Positions 6,317-64,000 of a stretch of DNA of 64,000 nucleotides are shown in pieces. The position numbers and the translations under genes are program-made. The DNA lies in contig JBBRRY010000002.1 in NCBI GenBank assembly GCA_038245905.1, positions 181,606 through 245,605 on the forward strand. The letters are read 5' to 3'. The DNA is from Thermoanaerobaculia bacterium (GTDB lineage: Bacteria > Acidobacteriota > Thermoanaerobaculia > UBA5066). A model generated the notes under the pieces. The model did no database searches. It was given only the letters and a program-made list of their open reading frames with translations, and was not told the origin of the DNA. Position 1 is the stretch's first letter, and the number at the start of each line of letters is the position of its first letter.

Positions 6317-9937
<3,621 letters not shown>

Positions 9938-9947
9938 GGAGACGACG

Positions 9948-10958
9948 ATGGACCTCACCACCCGCTATCTCGGCCTGACCCTTCCCCACCCATTCATGCC
10001 CGGCGCCTCGCCGATGGTCGACGACCTCGATCTCGTGCGCCGCCTCGAGGACGCCGGCGCCTCGGCGATCGTCATGAACTCGCTTTTCGAGGAGCAGATC
10101 ACCCGCGAGGAGGTCGGCACGATCCGCCAGATGGAGATCGTCTCCGGCTCGTACCCGGAGGCCCTCACGTACTTTCCGGAGCCGGAGGCCTTCAAGCTCG
10201 GCCCCGAGCGGTATCTCGACCGCGTGCGCCTGCTCAAGAAGACCGTCCGCATCCCCGTCATCGCGTCCCTGAACGGTGCGACGCCGGGCGGATGGGTCTC
10301 CTTCGCGGCGCGGATCGCCGAGGCCGGCGCCGACGCGCTCGAGCTGAACCTGTACGACGTCGGCGCGCACGAAGGCGAGCCGGGCTTTTCACTCGAGCGC
10401 CGCCTCCTCGAGATCGTAAGAACCGTGAAGGCCGCGGTGAAGATCCCGGTCGCCGTGAAACTGTCGCCGTTCTTCTCGTCTCTCGGCTCCTTCGCCTCCG
10501 AGCTCGATGCGATGCGCGTGGACGGGCTCGTCCTCTTCAACCGCTTCTATCAGCCTGACATCGATCCCGACAACCTGGAGGTGACGCCCGCGTTGCGCCT
10601 CTCCACGCGGGACGAGCTCCTCCTGCGCATTCGGTGGATCGCGATGCTCTCGGGGCGCGTCCAGGCGTCCCTCGCCGTCACGGGCGGTGTGCACGACGCC
10701 CGCGACGCAATCAAAGCGATCATGGCCGGCGCCGACGCCGTCCAGATCGTCTCGGCCCTCCTCTTGCGGGGTCCGCGGGCGCTCGCAGAGATCCGGACCG
10801 AGGTCGAAAGGTGGATGGAAGAGCACGAGTACGAATCGCTTGCCCAGATGAAGGGCAGCATGAGCCTGCTCTCGTGCCCGGACCCGGCAGCCTACGAGCG
10901 CGCGAACTACGCGCGCGTCCTCCAGAGCTACAAGCTCGAGGAGCCCGCCGCGATCTAG
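9948..10958 (+). CDS. dihydroorotate dehydrogenase-like flavoprotein associated with nifJ
   Basis: MDLTTRYLGLTL, SLFEEQI, IPVAVKLSP, LFNRFYQPDID, TGGVH, AYERANY; GAGGAG RBS. Confidence 0.88.
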   Translation: MDLTTRYLGLTLPHPFMPGASPMVDDLDLVRRLEDAGASAIVMNSLFEEQITREEVGTIRQMEIVSGSYPEALTYFPEPEAFKLGPERYLDRVRLLKKTVRIPVIASLNGATPGGWVSFAARIAEAGADALELNLYDVGAHEGEPGFSLERRLLEIVRTVKAAVKIPVAVKLSPFFSSLGSFASELDAMRVDGLVLFNRFYQPDIDPDNLEVTPALRLSTRDELLLRIRWIAMLSGRVQASLAVTGGVHDARDAIKAIMAGADAVQIVSALLLRGPRALAEIRTEVERWMEEHEYESLAQMKGSMSLLSCPDPAAYERANYARVLQSYKLEEPAAI

Positions 10959-54054: not shown

Positions 54055-54183
54055 CCCGGCGAGTATATTTCGCCTCGATCCTCGGGACGATGAGGCGGGC
54101 GCGGAAGCGGGCTGACGGTGGCGCCGCCGGCAATCGCGTCCTATAGTGCCTCTCGATCTCGTCCTCTACAGAAGGAGACTCGC

Positions 54184-55479
54184 ATGCACCGCATCTCGCT
54201 CGGTGTCCTGGCCTCCATCTTCCTTGCAGCCGCGCCGGCCTCCCGGGCCCATGACCTGAGCCCCGCGGAGAAGACGCTGGCGAGGACCGTCGAGGCCCGC
54301 CTCGGCGAGGAGATGACCGCCCTCGAGACGGTCGTCAACATCGACAGCGGCACCTTCAACGCCGCGGGTGTCCGGGAAGTCGGCCGCTTCTTCGACAAGG
54401 AGCTTCAGGCCCTCGGCTTCAAGACGCGCTGGATCCCCATGCCTGAGGCCATGCACCGCGGCGGGCACCTCGTCGCCGAGCGCGTCTCTCCGAAACCGTC
54501 TGGCAAGCGCGTGCTACTGATCGGCCATCTCGACACGATCTTCGAGGGTCAGGGCCACCGCTTCGAGCGCGCGGGCGACGTCGTCCGGGGTGCGGGCGTC
54601 ATCGACATGAAGGGCGGCGACGTCGTCATCCTGTATGCGCTCAAGGCCCTGCACGCCGCGGGCATGCTCGAGAACACGACCGTGCGCGTCTTCATGACGG
54701 GCGACGAAGAGAACCCCGGTCTGCCCACGTCCGAGTCCCGCCGCGACGTCGTCGCGGCCGCGAATGAGAGCGACGTCGCCCTGAGCTTTGAGTCGGGCCA
54801 GGGAAAGATCGTCCTTGGCCGGCGTGGCCTCAGCACGTGGTCTCTGGATGTCACGGGGGCTCAGGGTCACTCGGCGACCGTGTTTCACAAGGGCGGGGCG
54901 GGGGCGATCTACGAGACGGCGCGCATTCTCGATGGCTTCCAGAGAGCCTTTTCGGCGCATCCCAGCATCACGCTGAACACCGGCCTCGTCCTCGGCGGGA
55001 CGGACGTCGCCTACGACGCGGGTAAGAGCGCGGGGACGTCGATGGGAAAGTTCAACGTCATCGCGAAGGCGGCGACCGCGAAGGGGGACCTCCGCTTCCT
55101 CTCGGACGCCGACCGCGAGCAGGCAAAGTCGAAAATGCTGGAAATCGCTGCGACGAGCCTCCCAAAGACGAGCGCGAAGCTGACGTTCGACGACATGGTC
55201 CCCGGGTGGCCTGCGACCGACGGGAACCGCCTCGTGCTCGACCTGGTCAATGCGGCGGCGCGCGACCTGGGCCAGCCGACGCTCGAAGCCGATGACCCCT
55301 CGGCTCGGGGCTTCGGAGACGTCAACTTCGTCGGCTCCCTCGTAGCCGGCATCGACGGGCTGGGCGTGAGCGGCGAGGGTTTCCACGCCCCGGACGAGAG
55401 GATGGACGCGAAAACGCTTGTTCCCGCCACGCAACGCGCAACCGTCCTGATCGGCCGGCTGCTTCACCCGTCCAAATGA
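54184..55479 (+). CDS. secreted M20 family carboxypeptidase (carboxypeptidase G2-like)
   Basis: signal peptide, IGHLDT, DMKGG, GDEE, GHS, FHAPDE; AAGGAG RBS. Confidence 0.9.
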   Translation: MHRISLGVLASIFLAAAPASRAHDLSPAEKTLARTVEARLGEEMTALETVVNIDSGTFNAAGVREVGRFFDKELQALGFKTRWIPMPEAMHRGGHLVAERVSPKPSGKRVLLIGHLDTIFEGQGHRFERAGDVVRGAGVIDMKGGDVVILYALKALHAAGMLENTTVRVFMTGDEENPGLPTSESRRDVVAAANESDVALSFESGQGKIVLGRRGLSTWSLDVTGAQGHSATVFHKGGAGAIYETARILDGFQRAFSAHPSITLNTGLVLGGTDVAYDAGKSAGTSMGKFNVIAKAATAKGDLRFLSDADREQAKSKMLEIAATSLPKTSAKLTFDDMVPGWPATDGNRLVLDLVNAAARDLGQPTLEADDPSARGFGDVNFVGSLVAGIDGLGVSGEGFHAPDERMDAKTLVPATQRATVLIGRLLHPSK

Positions 55480-55489
55480 AGGAGGCCCC

Positions 55490-55984
55490 ATGAAGATCAC
55501 GTCGTCCCCGCTTCTCGCCCTTGCCGCGCTCTTCGCCGCGGGCAGCGCCCTCGCGCAGCCGGCTCCGAATCCGGCCGCCGCGCCGAAGCCCGCCGCGCCG
55601 CCGCTGCGCGCCGTCGTGACCGACGGCGCGCCGAAGGCCGCGGGGCCGTACTCGCAGGCGATCGTGGAGGGCGGCTTTCTCTTCGCCGCCGGACAGATCC
55701 CCCGCGATCCGAAGACGGGCACCGTGCTGACCGGGCCGATCGAGCAAGCCGTGGACCGCGTGTTCGACAACCTCGAAGCCGTCCTGAAGGCCGAAGGGCT
55801 CGGCTGGGCCGACGTCGTCAGGACGACGGTCTACATGACGAAGGGCGAAGACTTCGCGGCGATGAATGCGGTTTACGCGAAGCGGATGGGCGACGGCCGC
55901 CCCGCTCGTACGACCGTCTTCGTGGCGGGACTGCCCGGAGGCGCTCCCATCGAGATGGACCTCATCGCGCGCGTGCACCGTTAG
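55490..55984 (+). CDS. RidA/YjgF/UK114 family protein with N-terminal signal peptide
   Basis: APKAAGPYSQA, GQIP, MN.VY, PART.V.V..LP....E; hydrophobic N-terminus ending ALA-Q. Confidence 0.88.
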   Translation: MKITSSPLLALAALFAAGSALAQPAPNPAAAPKPAAPPLRAVVTDGAPKAAGPYSQAIVEGGFLFAAGQIPRDPKTGTVLTGPIEQAVDRVFDNLEAVLKAEGLGWADVVRTTVYMTKGEDFAAMNAVYAKRMGDGRPARTTVFVAGLPGGAPIEMDLIARVHR

Positions 55985-56025: not shown

Positions 56026-57522
56026 TCACCGGCTCGCCGTGAGGCGCAGCGTCTCCCTTCGGATCCGGATCGCGATGAGCCCGCATTCGGCCTGCCGCAT
56101 CCAGGGAGCCCGCTCCAGTCCCGCCTCGAGCGCCGCTTCCGCCTCGTCCAGACGGTCTTCGTCGAGGTACGCGTAGCCCAGGTTGATTCTCGCCCGCGCG
56201 CTCTCCGGCGCCTTCTGTGCCGCGTCTCTCCAAAGATCGATCGGCGAACGGTACAGCGCGTTTCGCTTCGCGAGGCCGATCCCCAGTCCCAGCGCGACCG
56301 CCAGTGCGGTTCCCAGCGCCAGTCGCCCCCACACCGGCCGCCTCCACGCAGCCGCATGCGCGGCGTATACCAGCCAGGCCGCCAGCCACGCGGGGCCCAG
56401 CGACGCCACGTAAAGCGGTCGCACTCCGACCGGATCCAGACGCCACACGATCGAGTTGCTCGGAAGAAGAGCGATCAGCATCCAGCCGGTCGCGAAGGCC
56501 GGCCACGGCGCGCGGCGCCGCACGCTCACCGCCCATGCGCCCACGACGGCGAGTCCGGCCAGCCGCACGAGCGTGGGCCCCTCGGTCCAGCCCCATTCGG
56601 GAGGCGGGGCGGGATCGATGCTGATGCGCCACGGGAAAGCCCACAGGCCCAGCATCGAGCTGACCGACTGCACGTTCCCGCGCAGAGCCTCGAGCGGACG
56701 GCGCGCGGCGAGGCTGAAGGCCACCAGCTCGCGGTGCCTCGGCATCACGAAGAGCACGCACGCCGCCGCAAGCGTCCCCGCGAGGATCGGCGCGTTCCTG
56801 CGCAGGCGATCGCGCCATGAGGTCTCGTGCGGAGCCACGGGCGACAGCGTCACCTCCCAGCACGCCATCAGGAGCGGAAGGACGAGCGCCGTCTCTCGCG
56901 CAAGAGGGGCCAGGAACGCGAGAGCCCCCGCCCCGAGCGCTCGCGCGGGAGAGGGCGCCTCTCCGCGCGCCACCAGCCACATCGCGCCGAGAGCGAACGC
57001 CGTCGACAACCCCATCGAGCGGCCCGAGACGTACGTCACCGTCTCGGCGGCGAGAGGGTGAAGCGCCCACAACGCGGCCCCGGCGAACGCGGCGACGTCG
57101 GTCCTGGCGGAGGCGCCGGTTTTCACCGCGTTGCCGTCCAACAGCCAGCACCTGGCGAGCAGAAACACGAGCACCGCCGACGCCGCGTGCAGCGCCACGT
57201 TCACCGCCCGGAAGCCTGCGGGCGACGGGCCATGAAGAACCATTCCGAGCGCGTAACTGGCCTTCAGGACGGGCCGCGCCATCAGCGGCAGCCGTGCGAG
57301 CGTGGACGAAGCCGACGCGCCAGGAGCCCCGACGACGTCCGCTTCGTCGTCGAACACGAACCCCGCCCCCAGCGCCGCCAGGAACGGCAGAATTGCGAGG
57401 ACCACGAGGAGAAGCGGGAGGAAAAGGTTCCGAGCTGTCGTGCCGCGATGTTGGACAGGCTCCATCTCGGACCGCGACGTTATCAAGACAGGCCTCTCCT
57501 CCGGAGCGCCGGACGCGCTCAA
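56026..57522 (-). CDS. GT-C type membrane protein with C-terminal TPR (TMTC-like O-mannosyltransferase family)
   Basis: FVFDD luminal motif, RP, NVALH, ALHPLAAETVTYVSGRS, RN..Y....LW.DA, TPR RARINLG; start uncertain (57522 TTG or 57465 ATG). Confidence 0.75.
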   Translation of the reverse strand: MSASGAPEERPVLITSRSEMEPVQHRGTTARNLFLPLLLVVLAILPFLAALGAGFVFDDEADVVGAPGASASSTLARLPLMARPVLKASYALGMVLHGPSPAGFRAVNVALHAASAVLVFLLARCWLLDGNAVKTGASARTDVAAFAGAALWALHPLAAETVTYVSGRSMGLSTAFALGAMWLVARGEAPSPARALGAGALAFLAPLARETALVLPLLMACWEVTLSPVAPHETSWRDRLRRNAPILAGTLAAACVLFVMPRHRELVAFSLAARRPLEALRGNVQSVSSMLGLWAFPWRISIDPAPPPEWGWTEGPTLVRLAGLAVVGAWAVSVRRRAPWPAFATGWMLIALLPSNSIVWRLDPVGVRPLYVASLGPAWLAAWLVYAAHAAAWRRPVWGRLALGTALAVALGLGIGLAKRNALYRSPIDLWRDAAQKAPESARARINLGYAYLDEDRLDEAEAALEAGLERAPWMRQAECGLIAIRIRRETLRLTASR

Positions 57523-58427
57523 TTCACCGTTTCGTCCGGCGACGGTTGCGCTTCAGCCGCCGCCCCTTCCTCCGCGACCTCAAGCAGCTCTGCCCTTCTC
57601 CGCCGCTTCCGGATCCCCGCGACGATCGCGAGGAGCGAGATCCCGAACCACAGCACGGCGGTGCTCGTCAGGATCGGGATCCAGCGCTTCAGAGACGCCT
57701 GCCGCTCGTAGAACGCCTCGCCGATGTCGATCAGCGTCGCGCCCGTCGCGCTGCGCATCGCCTCGTCGAACGTGTCGCCGTGCGCGACGCGCGCGAGGAC
57801 GATCCGCGGCACCGCCGGGCCGTAGCGCTCGAGAAGGTCCTGTATGAGCGCGCCCGAAAGCGCGTACCCGCGCTCCACCTGACGCCTGTCCCCCTGAAAC
57901 AGGTCGTCCAGCTTCCAGAGCGGCACGCGCGGGCCCGACAGCAGCCCGAGCGCCAGCTCGGTCTGGTCGCGCAGCCGCCACGAGCGCCCCGCAAGCATCG
58001 CGAGCCCTTCGTCGAACCACCGCGGCACCCGCCGCCCGCCGCTCGCCCGGTGGATGAATACGTGCGCGACCTCGTGCGCAAGCACCTCCTCGAGGCCGCC
58101 GTCCGGGTATGACGGCGTGCGCTCGGCCAGGATGACGACGACGCTCCCCACGTCGGAGGTGACGCCGTCCGTGAATCCCGAAACCCACGCCGGCATCGCG
58201 CGTGCGAGCGGCGACGACTCCGGCGCGAGAACGACGCGGATGGGCAGCCCCGGCACATCGAGGCCCACCAGGTCCATCACGCTCCAGACCCAGGAACGCG
58301 GCCCGGCGACGAGGCGGTTCGCGGATGGCGGGAGGCCGGGCTCGGGGTCGAAGACGAGGCGCGTGGGCTCGACCGCCGCGAGCGGCGAAGCGAGGAGGAG
58401 ACCCGCGAGGACACAGCGCTTCCAGAT
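57519..58427 (-). CDS. secreted MA-clan zinc metallopeptidase-like protein with C-terminal TM anchor
   Basis: LAHEVAH plus PRWFDEGLA, C-terminal TM and RKRRRR; no nearby in-frame ATG/GTG start, putative ATC start at 58427. Confidence 0.75.
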   Translation of the reverse strand: MWKRCVLAGLLLASPLAAVEPTRLVFDPEPGLPPSANRLVAGPRSWVWSVMDLVGLDVPGLPIRVVLAPESSPLARAMPAWVSGFTDGVTSDVGSVVVILAERTPSYPDGGLEEVLAHEVAHVFIHRASGGRRVPRWFDEGLAMLAGRSWRLRDQTELALGLLSGPRVPLWKLDDLFQGDRRQVERGYALSGALIQDLLERYGPAVPRIVLARVAHGDTFDEAMRSATGATLIDIGEAFYERQASLKRWIPILTSTAVLWFGISLLAIVAGIRKRRRRAELLEVAEEGAAAEAQPSPDETVN

Positions 58428-58539
58428 GAAGGCTAGGGTACTGCGCCCCGAACCTCCCCAGCGCGATGAGCGCGCCGCGACTAGAAGCAGTTCCCCCGCC
58501 CGTCCGGCTCGCGCATCCGCATGAACCGGTGGTGCGGAC

Positions 58540-59694
58540 TCACGGCGGCCACGACCCGCACACCCGCCGCAGGAGCGAGCGCGCGGCGTATCCGGGCATC
58601 TCCGCGAAGGATTCGAGAAGCCAGCGGTCGCGCAGGAAGGCCGGAAAACCGGCGACGCGCCGAAGCGCCGGAGTGTCTCCCGGGGCGAGAAAGGCGTAGT
58701 CGACGAGAACGCGCCGGACGATGCCGCGGAGGTCCGGGGGCCGGACGCCAAGCGCATAATCGGCCCTCTCGAGCCGTGACGCCGGGAGCGCCGCCAGCGC
58801 GTCGAGTGCGGCGGGAGGCACGCTGTCCGGAAAGGCCCCGTCGAGCCAGGCCAGCCCCGCGTGCGCGGCGAGAACGGCGCGGCGCGCACGAGCCGTTTCA
58901 ACGAGCCGCTCCCAATCGAGCCGGGGCGCGCCGCGAATCACGGCGAGCGAGTCGGCTATCCACCGGATCGGAGGCAGAGCGTTCCATCGCCCCCCGTGGA
59001 CGATCACGTGGAGAAGCTGGTCGGCTGGGCCGAGGACGCGAGTGGCGACGCCGCCGAACTCCACAGGTTCGCTGGCACCCCAGAATTTCTCGTCGGCGGG
59101 CACGTCGTGGTCGCGGAAGAACACGTGCCAGTGCAGGTCGATCTCGGCTCCCTCGTTTCGGAAAGCCATGGCGTGTCTCGTGGCGAGGCCCGCTGCGAGG
59201 GCTCGCCGGGAGATCTTCGGCCATGGCTCCCACCCGACCGCGAGGAGCGTGTCCATCGCCGCGTTCGCGTCCCTTCTTCGCACGAGGATGTCCACGTCGC
59301 TCATCGGACGAGCGCCCACGTCGACGTACCCGCGCGCCACGAGAGCAGCGCCCTTGAGGAGCAGCGTCTCGAGCCCTGCCGACTCGAGTGAGCGCACGAC
59401 GTCGGCACCGCGATGGCGGAGCAGCTGGTTCCGGTACCAAGCCGCGCGGGACACGGACTGGAGCCGGCTCATGAGCGGATGCGTGACGCCTCTCGTCCTG
59501 AGGTTCGCGTGGAGGGCAGGCAGGATTCGGTACGAGCCCTGGTCGAGGAGATCGAACTTCACGCGCGCAGCCCAGCTCTCGAACGCGGCGACGGCCCCGG
59601 GACCCTCGAGGAGCGCCGCCAGGAGGAGAAGCTCCTGCTCGGGAGTGGGACGGACCGAACCGATCGTCAACGGGAGCGCTCCCGGGCCCGCCAC
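58540..59694 (-). CDS. uncharacterised nucleotidyltransferase (NTP_transf_5-like)
   Basis: LLLKGAAL, RPMSDVDIL, IDLHW, LLH...HG, RWIAD, DWE. Confidence 0.85.
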   Translation of the reverse strand: MAGPGALPLTIGSVRPTPEQELLLLAALLEGPGAVAAFESWAARVKFDLLDQGSYRILPALHANLRTRGVTHPLMSRLQSVSRAAWYRNQLLRHRGADVVRSLESAGLETLLLKGAALVARGYVDVGARPMSDVDILVRRRDANAAMDTLLAVGWEPWPKISRRALAAGLATRHAMAFRNEGAEIDLHWHVFFRDHDVPADEKFWGASEPVEFGGVATRVLGPADQLLHVIVHGGRWNALPPIRWIADSLAVIRGAPRLDWERLVETARARRAVLAAHAGLAWLDGAFPDSVPPAALDALAALPASRLERADYALGVRPPDLRGIVRRVLVDYAFLAPGDTPALRRVAGFPAFLRDRWLLESFAEMPGYAARSLLRRVCGSWPP

Positions 59695-61184
59695 GACGCA
59701 CGGAAGAGGAGGCCGCCATGGACCGCGACGTCGGGAGGTCCGAACGCGAGGAGCGCATCCGCGATCGCCGCGTCACCGAGGGTCTTCGCGCGGGGAGCGA
59801 TCCGGGCGTCGACGGGCTCGATCGCGACGAGGGTCATGGGCCCCGTGCGCGGGCGGCCCGCAAGCGCTCCGAGAAGGGTCGCGAGCGCCTCGTGGTCGAA
59901 GGCGAGGCTGAGATCCGGCCGGAGAAGGAGGAAGAGCCCGCCGGGCCCATCGGGGGGCGCCGCCGCCGCGTCCGCCGGGAGATAGCGCGCAAAGGCCCTT
60001 GCTGCGTACGGCGGGAACACGACGACTGAGTCGCCCGGGCGGAATTCACGCGCGACGAGCGCCCCGGCCGCCCGATAGTCTTCGACCGGACGGGCTGTGG
60101 TCAAAAGACTCGTGAGCGCCCACGCGAGGCACACGCCCGCGCACGCGGACCACGCGGCGACGCGCGCCCTGCGGCCCGGCACCGAATCCGCCGCGACTGC
60201 GACTGCGGCGAGGAAGTACGGGAGCCCCGGCAAGAGGATGCGGTCCCACACGATGGGTGCGCCGAGCAGAGAGGTTGCGAAGGTGCCAAGCCATGAGACG
60301 CCCGCTCCCGTCAAGAGAGCGAGAGCGAGGCGCTCGCGCGACGCGACGACTGCCACCGCGCCTCCGAGGAGCGGCACGAAGCCGATTGTCGCGGGAACGC
60401 GGCCGGCCTCGACGCCCGGAACGAGATCGAAGAGGCCGAACAGGGAGTCGAAGCAGCGCGCGGCCAGATCGAGCGTCGTCGGAGGTATCCACCAGCGCTG
60501 ACGGTCCAGCGCGGTGAGTCCTACCCAAAGCGCGCCGAAGGCGGCCGCTCCGGCGGCGAGCCCGGGCGCGAGCGAGAGGACGACCTCCCGGCGGCGTGCG
60601 GGTCGCGCCGCGACGAGGCCGGCGGCGAGAAGGGCCGGAAGCCAGAAGACCGCGACGACGTGCGTGAGCACCGCGGCGGACAGAGCGAGAGCGAACGCGA
60701 GCCGGGCCCGCACGTCGTCAGGTGCGGATGCGAGGCGGAACGCCGCTGCGCCAGCGGCGACGAGGAGGAGAGCGAGGAGCGTGTAGCCGCGGACCTCCGT
60801 CCCGTAGCGGACGAGAAGCGGGTTGACGGCCACGAACGCGCCGGCCGCAAGGGCCCCGCCTGGAGAGGCTGGCGCGAGCCATCGCACGAGAAGGGCGACG
60901 AGCAGGAGACTGAGTACGAGCGTCAGGGCCCTGGCCGCCACGTCCGACCCGCCGAACACAGCCGTCCAGCCGCTGAGGAGGGCGAAGTAGAGAGGCGGGT
61001 GGTGGTTCGCGAGGAGTCCGCGCGCCATGTGCGCGAGGCCGGGCGTTGCGGCGCTGACCGTGGAATGAACCTCGTCCAGCCAGAGTGGTCTCACGAGAGC
61101 CGGCAGACGAAGGACGGCCGCGAGGAGGACGAGGAGGATCGCTGCGACTTCGAACCGGCGCGTTCCGGGAGAGCCCACGATCAT
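59667..61184 (-). CDS. GT39/ArnT-like membrane glycosyltransferase
   Basis: LWLDE, HPPLYF.LL, NP....Y..EVRGY; many TM helices; ATGA overlap with the GT2 gene. Confidence 0.8.
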   Translation of the reverse strand: MIVGSPGTRRFEVAAILLVLLAAVLRLPALVRPLWLDEVHSTVSAATPGLAHMARGLLANHHPPLYFALLSGWTAVFGGSDVAARALTLVLSLLLVALLVRWLAPASPGGALAAGAFVAVNPLLVRYGTEVRGYTLLALLLVAAGAAAFRLASAPDDVRARLAFALALSAAVLTHVVAVFWLPALLAAGLVAARPARRREVVLSLAPGLAAGAAAFGALWVGLTALDRQRWWIPPTTLDLAARCFDSLFGLFDLVPGVEAGRVPATIGFVPLLGGAVAVVASRERLALALLTGAGVSWLGTFATSLLGAPIVWDRILLPGLPYFLAAVAVAADSVPGRRARVAAWSACAGVCLAWALTSLLTTARPVEDYRAAGALVAREFRPGDSVVVFPPYAARAFARYLPADAAAAPPDGPGGLFLLLRPDLSLAFDHEALATLLGALAGRPRTGPMTLVAIEPVDARIAPRAKTLGDAAIADALLAFGPPDVAVHGGLLFRASWRARERSR

Positions 61185-61924
61185 CGCGATTCCGGTGTTG
61201 GAGCCGGTCCGGCGCGCCGGAGCGCGGGCAGCTCGGCGCGCGCTCCACCCGCGCCCGCCGCGCGCCGCGCGAGCGACTCGTGAAGGACGCGCATGACGTT
61301 CAGATCCCTCGCGTTTCGGCCCATCACGGAGTTTCCGTCGTGCAGCCGGTAGAGGAGACACGTGTCCTCGAGGACGAGAACGGGGTGGCCATGCTCGCGG
61401 GCCGCGAGAAAGAACGCGAGGTCCTCTCCGAAGCGCAGCGACGGATCGAGGCCACCCACCCTGTCGAACGTCCTCCGGGTCAGGACCACGGCGCCGAGGG
61501 TGAGCGCGACGACGGGCGCCTGCGGAAGCGCCGTGTCGCGCGTCGAATCAGGGTCGAGCGCCACGGCCCGCGTGTGTCCGAGGACGAGGGCGTCCGGCTC
61601 GGCGAGGAGACGAGGAAGTGCCGCGCCGAGCCAGCCTGGAGTCCAGAGATCGTCCACGTCGAGGAACGCGAGAACCGAGGATCGTGCTGCGAGGACGCCG
61701 GTGTTGCGGGCGGCTGCCGGGCCCCGATTCTCCTGCACGAGCGCGTGGAGTCCGAGCGTTCCGGCGATCTCCGCGGAACCGTCCGTGGAACCGTCATCTA
61801 CGACGACGATTTCGAGACCGGCGACGTCCTGCGCGCGGATCGACGCGACGGCGTCCCGGAGAAAGCGCGCCCCGTTGAAAACAGGAACGATCACGCTGAC
61901 CGGAGGGGGCGTTCCTGCCGTCAT
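61181..61924 (-). CDS. family 2 glycosyltransferase
   Basis: VSVIVPVFNG, VVDDGSTD, NRGPAAARN, FLDVDD, GED, YRLH. Confidence 0.92.
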   Translation of the reverse strand: MTAGTPPPVSVIVPVFNGARFLRDAVASIRAQDVAGLEIVVVDDGSTDGSAEIAGTLGLHALVQENRGPAAARNTGVLAARSSVLAFLDVDDLWTPGWLGAALPRLLAEPDALVLGHTRAVALDPDSTRDTALPQAPVVALTLGAVVLTRRTFDRVGGLDPSLRFGEDLAFFLAAREHGHPVLVLEDTCLLYRLHDGNSVMGRNARDLNVMRVLHESLARRAAGAGGARAELPALRRAGPAPTPESR

Positions 61925-62982
61925 GCTGGAGGCAGCAGACCGGCTACGGCGGACGCGGCCTGCGCGGGGTCGCCCCCGAGAGAGAGCGCGAAGCAGGGGA
62001 CGGACTTCACGAGAGCCGCGAGCGAGGCGAGGGACGCAGCGCCGGCGCCGGGGAGCTGGAACACCGTGCTCGGGGCGAGCGCGCGAAACGCTTCTCCAGG
62101 CGGAAGCGGAAGCACGAACGTCTCGCCGTGTCCCGCCACACGGGGCACGACGAGAGCCCGTAGCGCGAAGCTCGAGGTATCGCCCCCGCCCGGGGCGGGC
62201 GGCAGGAGAAAAAGGGTCTTTCCGTCGGCGCTTCCGGCCCGCTCGAGTCGCGCGCCGATTCCCGGCAGCGCGGGACTCGAGGGCGCGAGCTTCGCGGTCC
62301 CGTAGAGCCGGTGCACGGCGGGACGCGGCGCGCCCGAGACGAGCGCGTAGTCATCGGCAAAATGTTCGAGGCCGGAGGCGCGGCAGAGCAGCGCGGTCGT
62401 GGATTTTCCGGAACCACCTGGGCCCACGAGGAGAAGCGCGTCCGTCCCCCGTCCGACCGCGGCGGCGTGGACGAGGTGCACTCCGTGCGCCCGGAAGAAC
62501 CATGAAAAGAGGGCAAGGAGCGGCGCGCCTCGTTCGTGGATCGTCAGGAGGCTCGCGTCCCGCACCCAGAAAAAGCCGCGCGCGGATGTCTCGTCGAACG
62601 CCGCGAGTCCTCCCGAGAGAGAGAGCGATGCGAAGACGGGCCCCTTCGAGAATCCGCGAATCTCGCCACGGGGCCCGAGATCGTCCGAGGTCCACGGAGC
62701 GGACGGCGGCCCAACGCCCGTCGAGGAGGTGTCCCAGAGGTTCACCGTGAGATCCGGAGCGGACCCGCCCGAGATCTCGAGAGATCCGAGCGCGTCGCGT
62801 GCGAACGACGCGAGCGCGTCGCCAGCGAAGACGAGCCGCACGACCCTGCCGGCGATCCGGAGCGTGAGAGCCCGCGTCCCGGCCGCGGCCGTGGCCTTTT
62901 CGAAGGCCTCCTCGAGTGTATGGGCGAGAACGGGGCCCCGGACAGACCGGCGGACCGCTGACGACGCCGGCGATCCGGTCAT
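61921..62982 (-). CDS. HPr kinase-related P-loop kinase
   Basis: VHAAAV, GPGGSGKSTT Walker A, ADDY acidic pair; ATGA overlaps on both sides. Confidence 0.8.
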   Translation of the reverse strand: MTGSPASSAVRRSVRGPVLAHTLEEAFEKATAAAGTRALTLRIAGRVVRLVFAGDALASFARDALGSLEISGGSAPDLTVNLWDTSSTGVGPPSAPWTSDDLGPRGEIRGFSKGPVFASLSLSGGLAAFDETSARGFFWVRDASLLTIHERGAPLLALFSWFFRAHGVHLVHAAAVGRGTDALLLVGPGGSGKSTTALLCRASGLEHFADDYALVSGAPRPAVHRLYGTAKLAPSSPALPGIGARLERAGSADGKTLFLLPPAPGGGDTSSFALRALVVPRVAGHGETFVLPLPPGEAFRALAPSTVFQLPGAGAASLASLAALVKSVPCFALSLGGDPAQAASAVAGLLPPA

Positions 62983-63437
62983 TCCGGCTTGGTGGAGGCC
63001 CCGGGCACGGCCCGCGGCCAGCCCGTCTCGTCGACCTCGTGAATCGGGTCGAGGAGGAGCAGATCCTGCATGTCTGTGAACTTCTCGAGGCGCGGCGGCG
63101 CGAAGGAGCCGGTCGAGAGCGCGCTCTCGACCGGCGGAAGCGGTTCCGGGGAGGCTCCCGCGGCTCGCAGGACGAGGAGGCCTTCCCTCAGGAGCTCGTC
63201 GAGGAAAAGTGCGAACCCTTCGCGCACGGCACCGGGCTCGACGCCGTGGCGCTCCGCGAGCACACCCGTGATTTCGGCGACGGGCGCGCCCGCCGCGGCG
63301 AGCCGGAAGGACTCCGCCGCGGTGCCGCGCAGCGAATAGTAGGAACCGGTCTCGAGATTGACGGCTACGATCTCGCCGTCGAACGCCTCGTAGGCGACCT
63401 TCGGCGTATTGACTCCGAATCCCGGCCCATCGGTCAT
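62979..63437 (-). CDS. PqqD/RRE-domain protein with C-terminal FAPPRLEKFTDMQDLLLLDPIHEVDETGWP tail
   Basis: N-terminal about 90 aa with three beta strands then three helices (FDGEIVAVNLETGSYYSL...FLDELLREGLL), Pro-rich linker, distinct tail. Confidence 0.8.
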   Translation of the reverse strand: MTDGPGFGVNTPKVAYEAFDGEIVAVNLETGSYYSLRGTAAESFRLAAAGAPVAEITGVLAERHGVEPGAVREGFALFLDELLREGLLVLRAAGASPEPLPPVESALSTGSFAPPRLEKFTDMQDLLLLDPIHEVDETGWPRAVPGASTKPE

Positions 63438-64000
63438 TTTTTCTCCGTCGCGGCTTGCCGGGAACGAGAATAACCGAAGGGGATTCCGCCCGCCGCGCTT
63501 CTCTCCGAGACGACGAGACCGCCCTCGAGGTGGACGATCCGATCGCAGCCCTCGGCGACCGCGGCGTCGTGCGTGACGACGAGAAGGGTCGTCCCAGGGA
63601 GCGCGGCCCTGAGGCGGGCGATGACGTCCTGAACCGTCTGGAGGTCGAGGTGCGCCGTCGGCTCGTCGAGAAGAAGGAGTGCGGGCCGGCGCAGGATCGC
63701 GCGGGCGAGTGCTACGCGCTGGCGGCCACCCCCCGAGAGGGTCGCGCCGTCCTCGCCGACCTGCGTCTCCCAACCCGAGGGAAGCGCCGCGACGATTCCG
63801 TCCAGGAACGCGAGCCGGGCGGCCTCGTCGAGCGCCTCGTGCGGGGCCCCCGGTGTTCCGTAGGTCACGTTCTCGGCGAGGGTCCCTCGGACGACGAGAG
63901 GTTCCTGGAGCACCGTGCCCGTCCTCCTTCGCAGCGAGACGGCGTCGAAGGTTCCGTACGGGAGACCGTCCGCGAGAAGACGGCCCGACCACGGCTCGGC
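63434..64000 (-). CDS. ABC transporter ATP-binding domain (5' end beyond the window)
   Basis: Q-loop VLQE, LSGGGRQR signature, LLLDEPT, VTHD; frame open to the window edge. Confidence 0.9.
   Translation of the reverse strand, partial: AEPWSGRLLADGLPYGTFDAVSLRRRTGTVLQEPLVVRGTLAENVTYGTPGAPHEALDEAARLAFLDGIVAALPSGWETQVGEDGATLSGGGRQRVALARAILRRPALLLLDEPTAHLDLQTVQDVIARLRAALPGTTLLVVTHDAAVAEGCDRIVHLEGGLVVSERSAAGGIPFGYSRSRQAATEKK

Follow-up and report, generated by a model that had tools for sequence, protein, structure and literature searches.

RiPP recognition elements (RREs), the adaptors of ribosomally synthesised and post-translationally modified peptide pathways, are understood to hand a separate, leader-bearing peptide to enzymes. 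What, then, does an RRE do when a leader-like sequence is built into the adaptor itself? This question is raised by a gene in the 64,000-nucleotide stretch of Thermoanaerobaculia bacterium DNA analysed here (the window; contig JBBRRY010000002.1, positions 181,606 to 245,605), whose product joins a PqqD-like RRE to a conserved C-terminal tail. Conservation, covariation and structure models suggest that the tail lies in the leader cleft of its own RRE. By analogy with related pathways, the tail may replace the precursor peptide and serve as a carrier or substrate for neighbouring enzymes, a reading to which we assign a probability of roughly 0.4. The gene and its parts are as follows.

62979..63437, minus strand: RRE-plus-tail gene, from the open reading frame (ORF) call, with a 152-aa product
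63174..63383, minus strand: PqqD/RRE domain, assigned to the lasso-B1 type, residues 19-88 (Pfam PF05402, PDB profile, Foldseek)
63105..63173, minus strand: variable linker, residues 89-111 (variable length in homologues; predicted local distance difference test score, pLDDT, 66-74)
63075..63104, minus strand: leader-like motif F112-x-x-P115-x-L117-E-K-F-T121 (conservation, pLDDT, covariation)
63015..63074, minus strand: near-invariant distal motif DMQDLLLLDPIHEVDETGWP, D122 to P141 (conservation, modelled kinase interface)
62979..63014, minus strand: variable C-terminal end, residues 142-152, and stop codon (homologue alignment)

The first-pass annotation of this DNA, made from the letters alone, had described a PqqD-like domain followed by a linker and an FAPPRL tail, and this order was confirmed by the ORF, its translation and a Pfam PqqD match. 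Linker residues 92-111 are AAGASPEPLPPVESALSTGS, and the F112 codon begins at 63104. The PF05402 match covered residues 22-88 and, at 36.8 bits, exceeded the Pfam gathering score of 23.4. The protein scored below the curated NCBIfam cut-offs for lasso_PqqD (NF033536, 25.2 vs 80; NF033530, 20.9 vs 70) and for TIGR04353 PqqD_rel_X (20.2 vs 35). When a profile of the RRE family was compared with PDB sequences, matches were obtained to TbiB1 (5v1u, E 4.6e-18) and PbaB1 (9x90, E 1.6e-13), and also to TfuB1 and LppB. An AlphaFold2 model of the protein, built from 28 sequences, matched TbiB1 (5v1v_A) in Foldseek with a template modelling (TM) score of 0.87 normalised by target and a root-mean-square deviation of 1.3 A. 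The model had a winged helix-turn-helix fold with strands at 14-19, 22-27 and 32-37 and helices at 38-48, 53-64 and 68-84, all at pLDDT 93-98. These sequence and model comparisons assign the RRE domain to the lasso-B1 type.

The tail proved to be the best conserved part of this arrangement. A word-indexed search with 90% clustering returned 1655 homologues, and an exhaustive HMMER search with 50% clustering gave 3746 cluster representatives at E<=0.001; the 120 best homologues were 136-211 aa long, with 87-100% of the query covered. A comparison of homologues had been proposed in the first-pass annotation, and in an alignment of 28 sequences the tail was more conserved than the RRE itself. The consensus of 242 sequences was [FYW]-x-x-P-x-[LFIVM]-x-K-[YF]-T-D-M-Q-D-L-L-L-L-D-P-I-H-E-V-D-E-T-G-W-P. 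Position 112 was aromatic (F, Y or W) in 239 of the 242 aligned homologues, P115 was present in 237, and position 117 was L, F, I, V or M in all 242. The distal motif, with the pattern D-M-x-x-L-L-L-L-D-P-I-H-E-V-D-x-x-G-W-P, was almost invariant: D122 was found in 236/242, D130 in 241/242, H133 and W140 each in 242/242, and P131 and P141 were also kept in 241-242/242. The flanking parts varied, with a linker of 11-30 residues (median 22) and 2-22 residues after GWP, among which a Ser or Thr was present in 149/242. The aromatic-x-x-P-x-L motif alone is too short to be significant, and it rises above chance because it is conserved across homologues, which bears out the earlier view of FAPPRL as a leader-like motif.

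Relatives were encoded in 567 genomes in a motif scan with one genome per species, whose record titles named Acidobacteriota, Chloroflexota, Cyanobacteria, Verrucomicrobiota, Nitrospirota, Desulfobacterota, Actinomycetota, Bacteroidota, Planctomycetota and other phyla; the carriers named included Oscillatoria sp. PCC 10802 and Candidatus Chloroploca asiatica. The closest relatives, at 96% and 84% identity, came from Thermoanaerobaculia/Acidobacteriota metagenome-assembled genomes. Four Bryobacterales/Terriglobia loci (L044, L064, L065 and L069) had Trp at the aromatic position together with Glu at 121 (WExPxLxVYEDM). This subgroup may mark a separate specificity class, comparable to the Tyr/Trp difference reported between LPP (linear polyphosphorylated peptide) and paeninodin leaders.

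It had also been proposed that the tail folds back onto its own RRE, and this is supported in silico by two AlphaFold models and by complementary covariation. In the AlphaFold2 model, residues 111-120 were placed at pLDDT 94, with 117-120 forming a strand, after a linker at pLDDT 66-74. Residues 121-152 dropped to pLDDT 50-69 in this monomer model, the distal motif D122-P141 lying at 56-69. In the model of a paralogue with about 30% identity, P-x-L was again immediately followed by a strand (pLDDT 89-90), beyond which the end was of low confidence.

Covariation was calculated over the 242 sequences as mutual information with average product correction (APC), at separations above 4. The top covarying pairs of the entire protein joined the RRE to the tail, with 37x118 ranking first, 85x119 second and 74x112 seventh. 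Glu118 was present in 61 of the 68 sequences with Arg37; Glu37 never occurred with Glu118 and Asp37 did so in 3 cases, and sequences with D37 or E37 mostly had Gln, Asn or His at 118. Likewise, K119 or R119 was present in 198/217 sequences with E85, and those with a non-Glu residue at 85 mostly had a non-basic 119. Y112 was found in 16/21 sequences with D74, while Ala, Gly or Ser at 74 went with F112. The RRE-tail covariation is therefore chemically complementary at all of these pairs (R37/E118, E85/K119, D74/Y112). Position 37 is the end of the edge strand 32-37, which aligns with the leader-pairing strand of PbaB1 (PMC13381572); position 74 is within helix 3 and position 85 immediately behind it. 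The D74-Y112 coupling has its parallel in the LPP family, where a Tyr-Asp hydrogen bond is reported between LppB D70 and LppA Y-16 (PMC13381572).

Since relatedness could mimic such couplings, independent pairs were counted on a FastTree tree built without the six trait columns, using edge-disjoint sister pairs on all branches, many of them poorly supported. R37 and E118 went the same way in 26 pairs and opposite in 2 (p 3e-6), and acidic 37 and Q/N/H118 in 17 and 0 (p 1.5e-5). The corresponding counts were 7 and 1 for E85 and K/R119 (p 0.07) and 8 and 1 for D74 and Y112 (p 0.04). Several points limit this evidence for the docking of the tail in its own cleft. When only supported branches were used, 4-7 usable pairs were left, with 2.1-3.7 the same way and 0.1 opposite, and the test was not significant (median p 0.125-0.5). 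The covarying pairs were chosen after the ranking was seen, and the models and the covariation are not fully independent because AlphaFold uses the same covariation signal. Covariation and models fit cis docking and a domain-swapped dimer alike, and we infer the pairing partner of strand 117-120 from the covariation and from homology to solved RRE-leader complexes. With these points weighed, sequence and models place the aromatic-x-x-P-x-hydrophobic leader motif between edge strand and helix 3, and it is highly probable that the protein is a B1-type RRE with its own tail occupying its leader cleft.

Is there a separate precursor that this RRE could serve? A tail hidden Markov model (HMM; residues 111-142) was run at full sensitivity over six frames of the host genome, which is 96.4% complete. 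It matched two ORFs, the RRE-tail gene and a paralogue on contig C48, both of which also matched the RRE HMM. No stand-alone tail motif was found in the host genome, nor in 80 foreign related loci, where 81/81 tail-matching ORFs also matched the RRE; a precursor with a very divergent leader would evade the tail HMM. One PqqD gene without a tail was seen in these loci. Since the operon genes overlap or abut, there is no space for a small precursor gene within the cassette. A separate precursor with the same motif was thus rejected for the host genome and the 80 loci, in line with the earlier remark that no such gene is visible.

The paralogue (9705-10196 of the C48 locus L004, minus strand) is a second self-leadered RRE, which reads YGTPCLEKFEDM...LDPVHDV..GWP and has Glu where T121 would be. 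Since the GTG listed as its start falls within a divergent GT2 gene, translation probably begins at an internal Met about 21 codons downstream. The tail was also seen in natural fusions from public collections. P0121 and P0122, of about 800 aa, consist of an RRE-tail, two further RREs and an HprK-like kinase. In P0121, P0122, P0124 and P0127 the first RRE carries the full tail and the second the leader-like part alone (F-x-x-P-x-I). A third RRE, with neither tail nor leader-like part, is present in P0121, P0122 and P0124, and P0127 comprises the first two RREs only.

The RRE-tail gene lies in an operon with the following genes.

63434..64000, minus strand: MsbA-like ABC exporter, C-terminal part, cut by the contig end (ABC_tran; CydD/LssB-like)
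61921..62982, minus strand: HprK-like P-loop kinase, 353 aa, translationally coupled (NCBIfam HprK_rel_A, HprK/P profile alignment)
61181..61924, minus strand: GT2 glycosyltransferase, 247 aa (PF00535, 103.5 bits)
59667..61184, minus strand: PMT_2-type membrane glycosyltransferase, outside the conserved cassette (PF13231, 28.0 bits)
58540..59694, minus strand: NTP_transf_5 nucleotidyltransferase-like protein, 384 aa (PF14907, 135.3 bits)
57519-58901, minus strand: Peptidase_MA (HExxH) protein, after NTP_transf_5 in the operon
56026-57522, minus strand: TPR membrane protein, after NTP_transf_5 in the operon

The ATG of the RRE-tail gene at 63437 shares four bases (ATGA) with the stop of the upstream ABC-exporter gene, and its stop shares four bases (ATGA) with the ATG of the HprK-like gene at 62982. 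Each of the first four operon junctions, from the exporter to the PMT_2 gene, is such a 4-base ATGA overlap. In the 80 related loci, several of which lack a cassette gene and are short or cut at the end, relatives were found of the HprK-like kinase in 70, of the GT2 protein in 67, of NTP_transf_5 in 56 and of the ABC exporter in 31. The kinase gene directly followed the RRE gene in 48 loci, often with a 4-base overlap. Relatives of the PMT_2 gene were present in only 3/80 loci and of the TPR protein in 2/80, and the Peptidase_MA gene had no relative in any of the 80, including those with the 96%- and 84%-identical homologues, from which the TPR protein was likewise missing. Since Peptidase_MA is not shared and PMT_2 and TPR are rare, the conserved cassette ends at NTP_transf_5, which is present as a single copy above cut-off in the host genome. 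Peptidase_MA was rejected as the leader peptidase of the cassette, with relatives in 0/80 loci. No C39 peptidase domain was found in the exporter. In Oscillatoria sp. PCC 10802 the gene order is RRE-tail, kinase, three GT2, ABC exporter and NTP_transf_5.

Two loci, L009 and L079, with several kb on both sides, contained RRE-tail and ABC genes and no HprK-like gene detected within the locus, indicating that the link to the kinase is frequent and not absolute. Window positions 63860-64000 and positions 12012-12152 of contig C48 (L004) were identical over 141 bases inside the ABC exporter gene. This overlap of contig ends indicates that C48 and the window contig are neighbours, and the 5' part of the exporter gene sits on C48. 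The joined locus comprises two divergent cassettes: the first holds the PqqD-tail paralogue, an HprK-like kinase and three GT2 genes, and on the opposite strand a GT2 gene and the ABC exporter precede the RRE-tail operon. The related locus L006 has the same layout.

The HprK-like kinase scored 40.5 bits with NCBIfam HprK_rel_A (TIGR04352), below the cut-off of 200, and the single kinase sequence matched no Pfam family at E<=0.01. H172, the P-loop G187-T195 and D210-D211 were conserved in 33 aligned kinases, and the family profile aligned with HprK/P (1jb1) across these three motifs (His, P-loop and DD) at E 3.4e-6. As judged from these alignments, the protein has the His, GxxGxGK[ST] and DD of an HprK/P-type P-loop kinase.

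A multimer model with the kinase had been suggested earlier, and the model passed its controls and placed tail residues in the interface. It was built from a kinase alignment and an RRE-tail alignment of 33 rows each, taken from the same loci. The ipSAE interface score was 0.83 in each of three runs, whereas the best of three controls reached 0.00. In the calibration of the tool, the mark was reached by 58/80 solved complexes and 2/110 mismatched pairs, counts that are only roughly valid here because custom alignments were used. The three runs had at least 72% of contacts in common, with partner pLDDT at least 75. In one part of the confident modelled interface, the RRE sheet contacts kinase residues 294-326 (C-terminal helices) with its outer face (residues 11-35). 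In the other part, tail residues 120, 122-123, 126-127 and 139-141 meet kinase residues 92-126, 141 and 188, the last of which is inside the GPGGSGKST P-loop. D130 was not among the confident contacts. The complex model supports binding of the kinase by the RRE-tail protein, and probably the RRE sits on the kinase, on which the invariant distal motif rests as well.

Among described systems, the LPP family of Bacillota, LppA/K/B/S/D/N (Popov et al., Nat Commun 2026; PMC13381572), comes closest. Both the LPP clusters and the cassette described here have genes for an RRE, for an HprK-like kinase, for an NTP transferase and for an MsbA-like exporter, both tend to sit among glycan genes and both are without a lasso cyclase. 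An aromatic-x-x-P-x-hydrophobic leader motif and the Tyr-Asp cleft pairing are also common to the two, although the aromatic is mostly Phe in the RRE-tail family, unlike in LPP. In LPP the precursor is separate, with an N-terminal YxxPxVLxHQxIxFETxxS leader and a variable core, whereas here the RRE itself carries the leader at its C-terminus. LPP clusters use LppS, a signal peptidase I of the archaeal type, as leader peptidase, whereas the cassette has no such enzyme; no signal peptidase family was found among the 8 window proteins scanned with Pfam and NCBIfam, no genome-wide search having been made. Furthermore, the conserved set here includes one to several GT2 genes, unlike LPP, and the cassette occurs in many phyla, whereas LPP is restricted to Bacillota (PMC13381572).

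The lasso B1 proteins (TbiB1-TbiA 5V1V/5V1U, TfuB1 6JX3, PbaB1 9X90) were the best sequence and fold matches of the RRE, and their leader complexes show the same leader motif with a strand likewise after P-x-L. In lasso systems, however, the leader is a separate peptide and cyclase and B2 peptidase genes are present. The B2 peptidase family (Transglut_core3, PF13471) had 0 matches in the 96.4%-complete genome, and neither B2 nor an Asn-synthetase-like lasso cyclase was among the operon proteins, the cyclase family not having been searched genome-wide. In the HPr-rel-A system (TIGR04352, TIGR04353) a PqqD-like protein adjoins an HprK-related kinase, as here; since both proteins fall far below the cut-offs of that system (40.5 vs 200; 20.2 vs 35), they belong to a different subfamily. 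Neither an RRE with its leader fused nor this cassette was the subject of any paper returned by literature searches, the co-occurrence tables of the LPP paper not having been checked for fused forms. The gene set is a widespread variant of RiPP-type tailoring systems and apparently unpublished.

How might such a protein work? In the mechanism that we propose, F112-x-x-P115-x-L117-E-K-F would fold into its own cleft with the aromatic against helix 3, and the residues after P-x-L would extend the sheet beside strand 32-37, as the in silico evidence suggests. The outer face of the RRE sheet would rest on the C-terminal helices of the adjacent HprK-like kinase, and the distal motif D122-P141 on the kinase N-domain near the P-loop, as modelled. 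The built-in tail would then stand in for the separate precursor peptide of related pathways, acting as a handle and most likely as a carrier or substrate for the cassette enzymes, namely the kinase, the NTP_transf_5 protein, one or more GT2 proteins and the ABC exporter. The analogy of LPPs and of phosphorylated and phosphoglycosylated lasso peptides might lead one to expect a phosphate-linked decoration. The first-pass annotation had read the tail as a core presented to the neighbouring enzymes, which is plausible.

Several findings weigh against this reading. No hydroxyl residue in the tail was invariant in the 242 sequences. Position 121 was T in 185, S in 27, D in 15, A in 5, E in 4, N in 2, H in 1 and R in 1, giving S/T in 212/242 and another residue in 30/242, and position 138 was S/T in only 62%. 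The excess of Asp/Glu among the exceptions at position 121 is a pattern that a phosphosite might show. The His, P-loop and DD motifs were kept in 9/9 kinase-bearing loci that have E, H, N or Q instead of S/T at 121; one more locus, which has R there, is too short to contain the kinase. Since the kinases are intact where 121 is not S/T, T121 is not an obligatory substrate, and it was rejected as the obligatory acceptor of the kinase. LppK, the sole characterised relative, phosphorylated Ser and not Thr (PMC13381572), whereas position 121 here is mostly Thr. The invariant D130 is residue 18 after F112, and the phosphorylated Ser (Ser3) of LPP leaders is likewise 18 after the Tyr (PMC13381572), a match in spacing that is at present a coincidence. 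The tail is internal and not terminal in the fusions P0121 and P0122. The conserved cassette includes no leader peptidase, so the tail probably stays attached. The earlier interpretation is supported in silico in its conservation, fold-back and kinase-model parts, and its proposal of DPIHEVDETGWP as a modified core was not supported, given the lack of an invariant tail Ser/Thr and the intact kinases in those 9/9 loci.

These results would also suit a permanent structural or activating subunit, in which the cis leader only keeps the RRE folded and the distal motif serves to complete or regulate the kinase, or a different enzyme of the cassette. The actual substrate would then be a sugar, lipid or glycan intermediate, or an unlinked protein. 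The missing invariant hydroxyl acceptor, the intact kinases in the 9/9 loci without S/T at 121, the internal position of the tail in natural fusions and the lack of a peptidase in the conserved cassette are all as expected of such a subunit. D130, H133 and W140 are nearly 100% conserved across phyla, as residues of an interface or a catalytic element typically are, and one to several GT2 genes with an MsbA-like exporter without a C39 domain would fit as well. LppB lacking its leader was reported to be insoluble (PMC13381572), and a leader fused to the RRE could therefore be there for folding alone. Against this, the characterised relatives of the kinase and of NTP_transf_5 act on RRE-bound peptides (PMC13381572), and the complex model places tail residues 120-127 near the P-loop. 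Moreover, a cleft filled in cis would cost the RRE its only known function, and there would be no reason for the cleft contacts to coevolve unless the tail is delivered. The subunit is thus a possible explanation that we hold tentatively, and we lean towards the carrier-or-substrate reading; autoinhibition and a cleaved core rank lower.

A narrower form of the carrier-or-substrate reading can be outlined, although it is speculative and rather unlikely as it stands. The RRE-tail protein would be a self-recognising protein primer, on which an invariant non-hydroxyl residue (D130 as the lead, H133 as the alternative) is activated by the kinase and bears a phosphate-linked glycan built by NTP_transf_5 and GT2. 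If true, glycoconjugates would be made here by a protein-primed pathway, derived in evolution from RiPP tailoring enzymes and without any free peptide precursor.

The first-pass annotation had also considered an autoinhibitory pseudo-leader, in which the tail would block the cleft until the true precursor, encoded elsewhere, displaces it. Cleft and leader motif are both intact and the linker is flexible, as this would require. What disfavours it is the failure to find a trans precursor: the motif never stood alone in the genome or the 80 loci, although a very divergent leader would evade the tail HMM, and the overlapping or abutting operon genes leave no room for a small gene. A tethered leader would also be at high local concentration, and the complementary covariation points to selection for the cis contact, so we consider autoinhibition improbable. 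Cofactor-type RiPPs such as PQQ and mycofactocin have invariant cores, and a classical RRE-precursor fusion, with the distal motif as a core that undergoes modification and cleavage before its export as a small, conserved cofactor- or signal-type molecule, would suit these cores, the ABC exporter and the Peptidase_MA gene of the window operon, but it is equally doubtful given that Peptidase_MA has a relative in 0/80 loci (even at 96% and 84% identity), the exporter has no C39 domain, the 96.4%-complete genome has no lasso B2-type peptidase and the tail is internal in fusion proteins.

The locus represents a large multi-phylum family whose adaptor carries the leader itself, with no gene for a precursor. 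Either the family may be a new route to a modified protein or glycoconjugate, or RiPP tailoring enzymes may have been recruited to act on targets that are not free peptides. This question can be tested directly by way of the modelled interface with the kinase and the covarying contact pairs.

Beyond the operon, at 54118-55984 on the plus strand of the window, an M20-type peptidase-like ORF and a small RidA-like ORF were recognised by eye from their translations.

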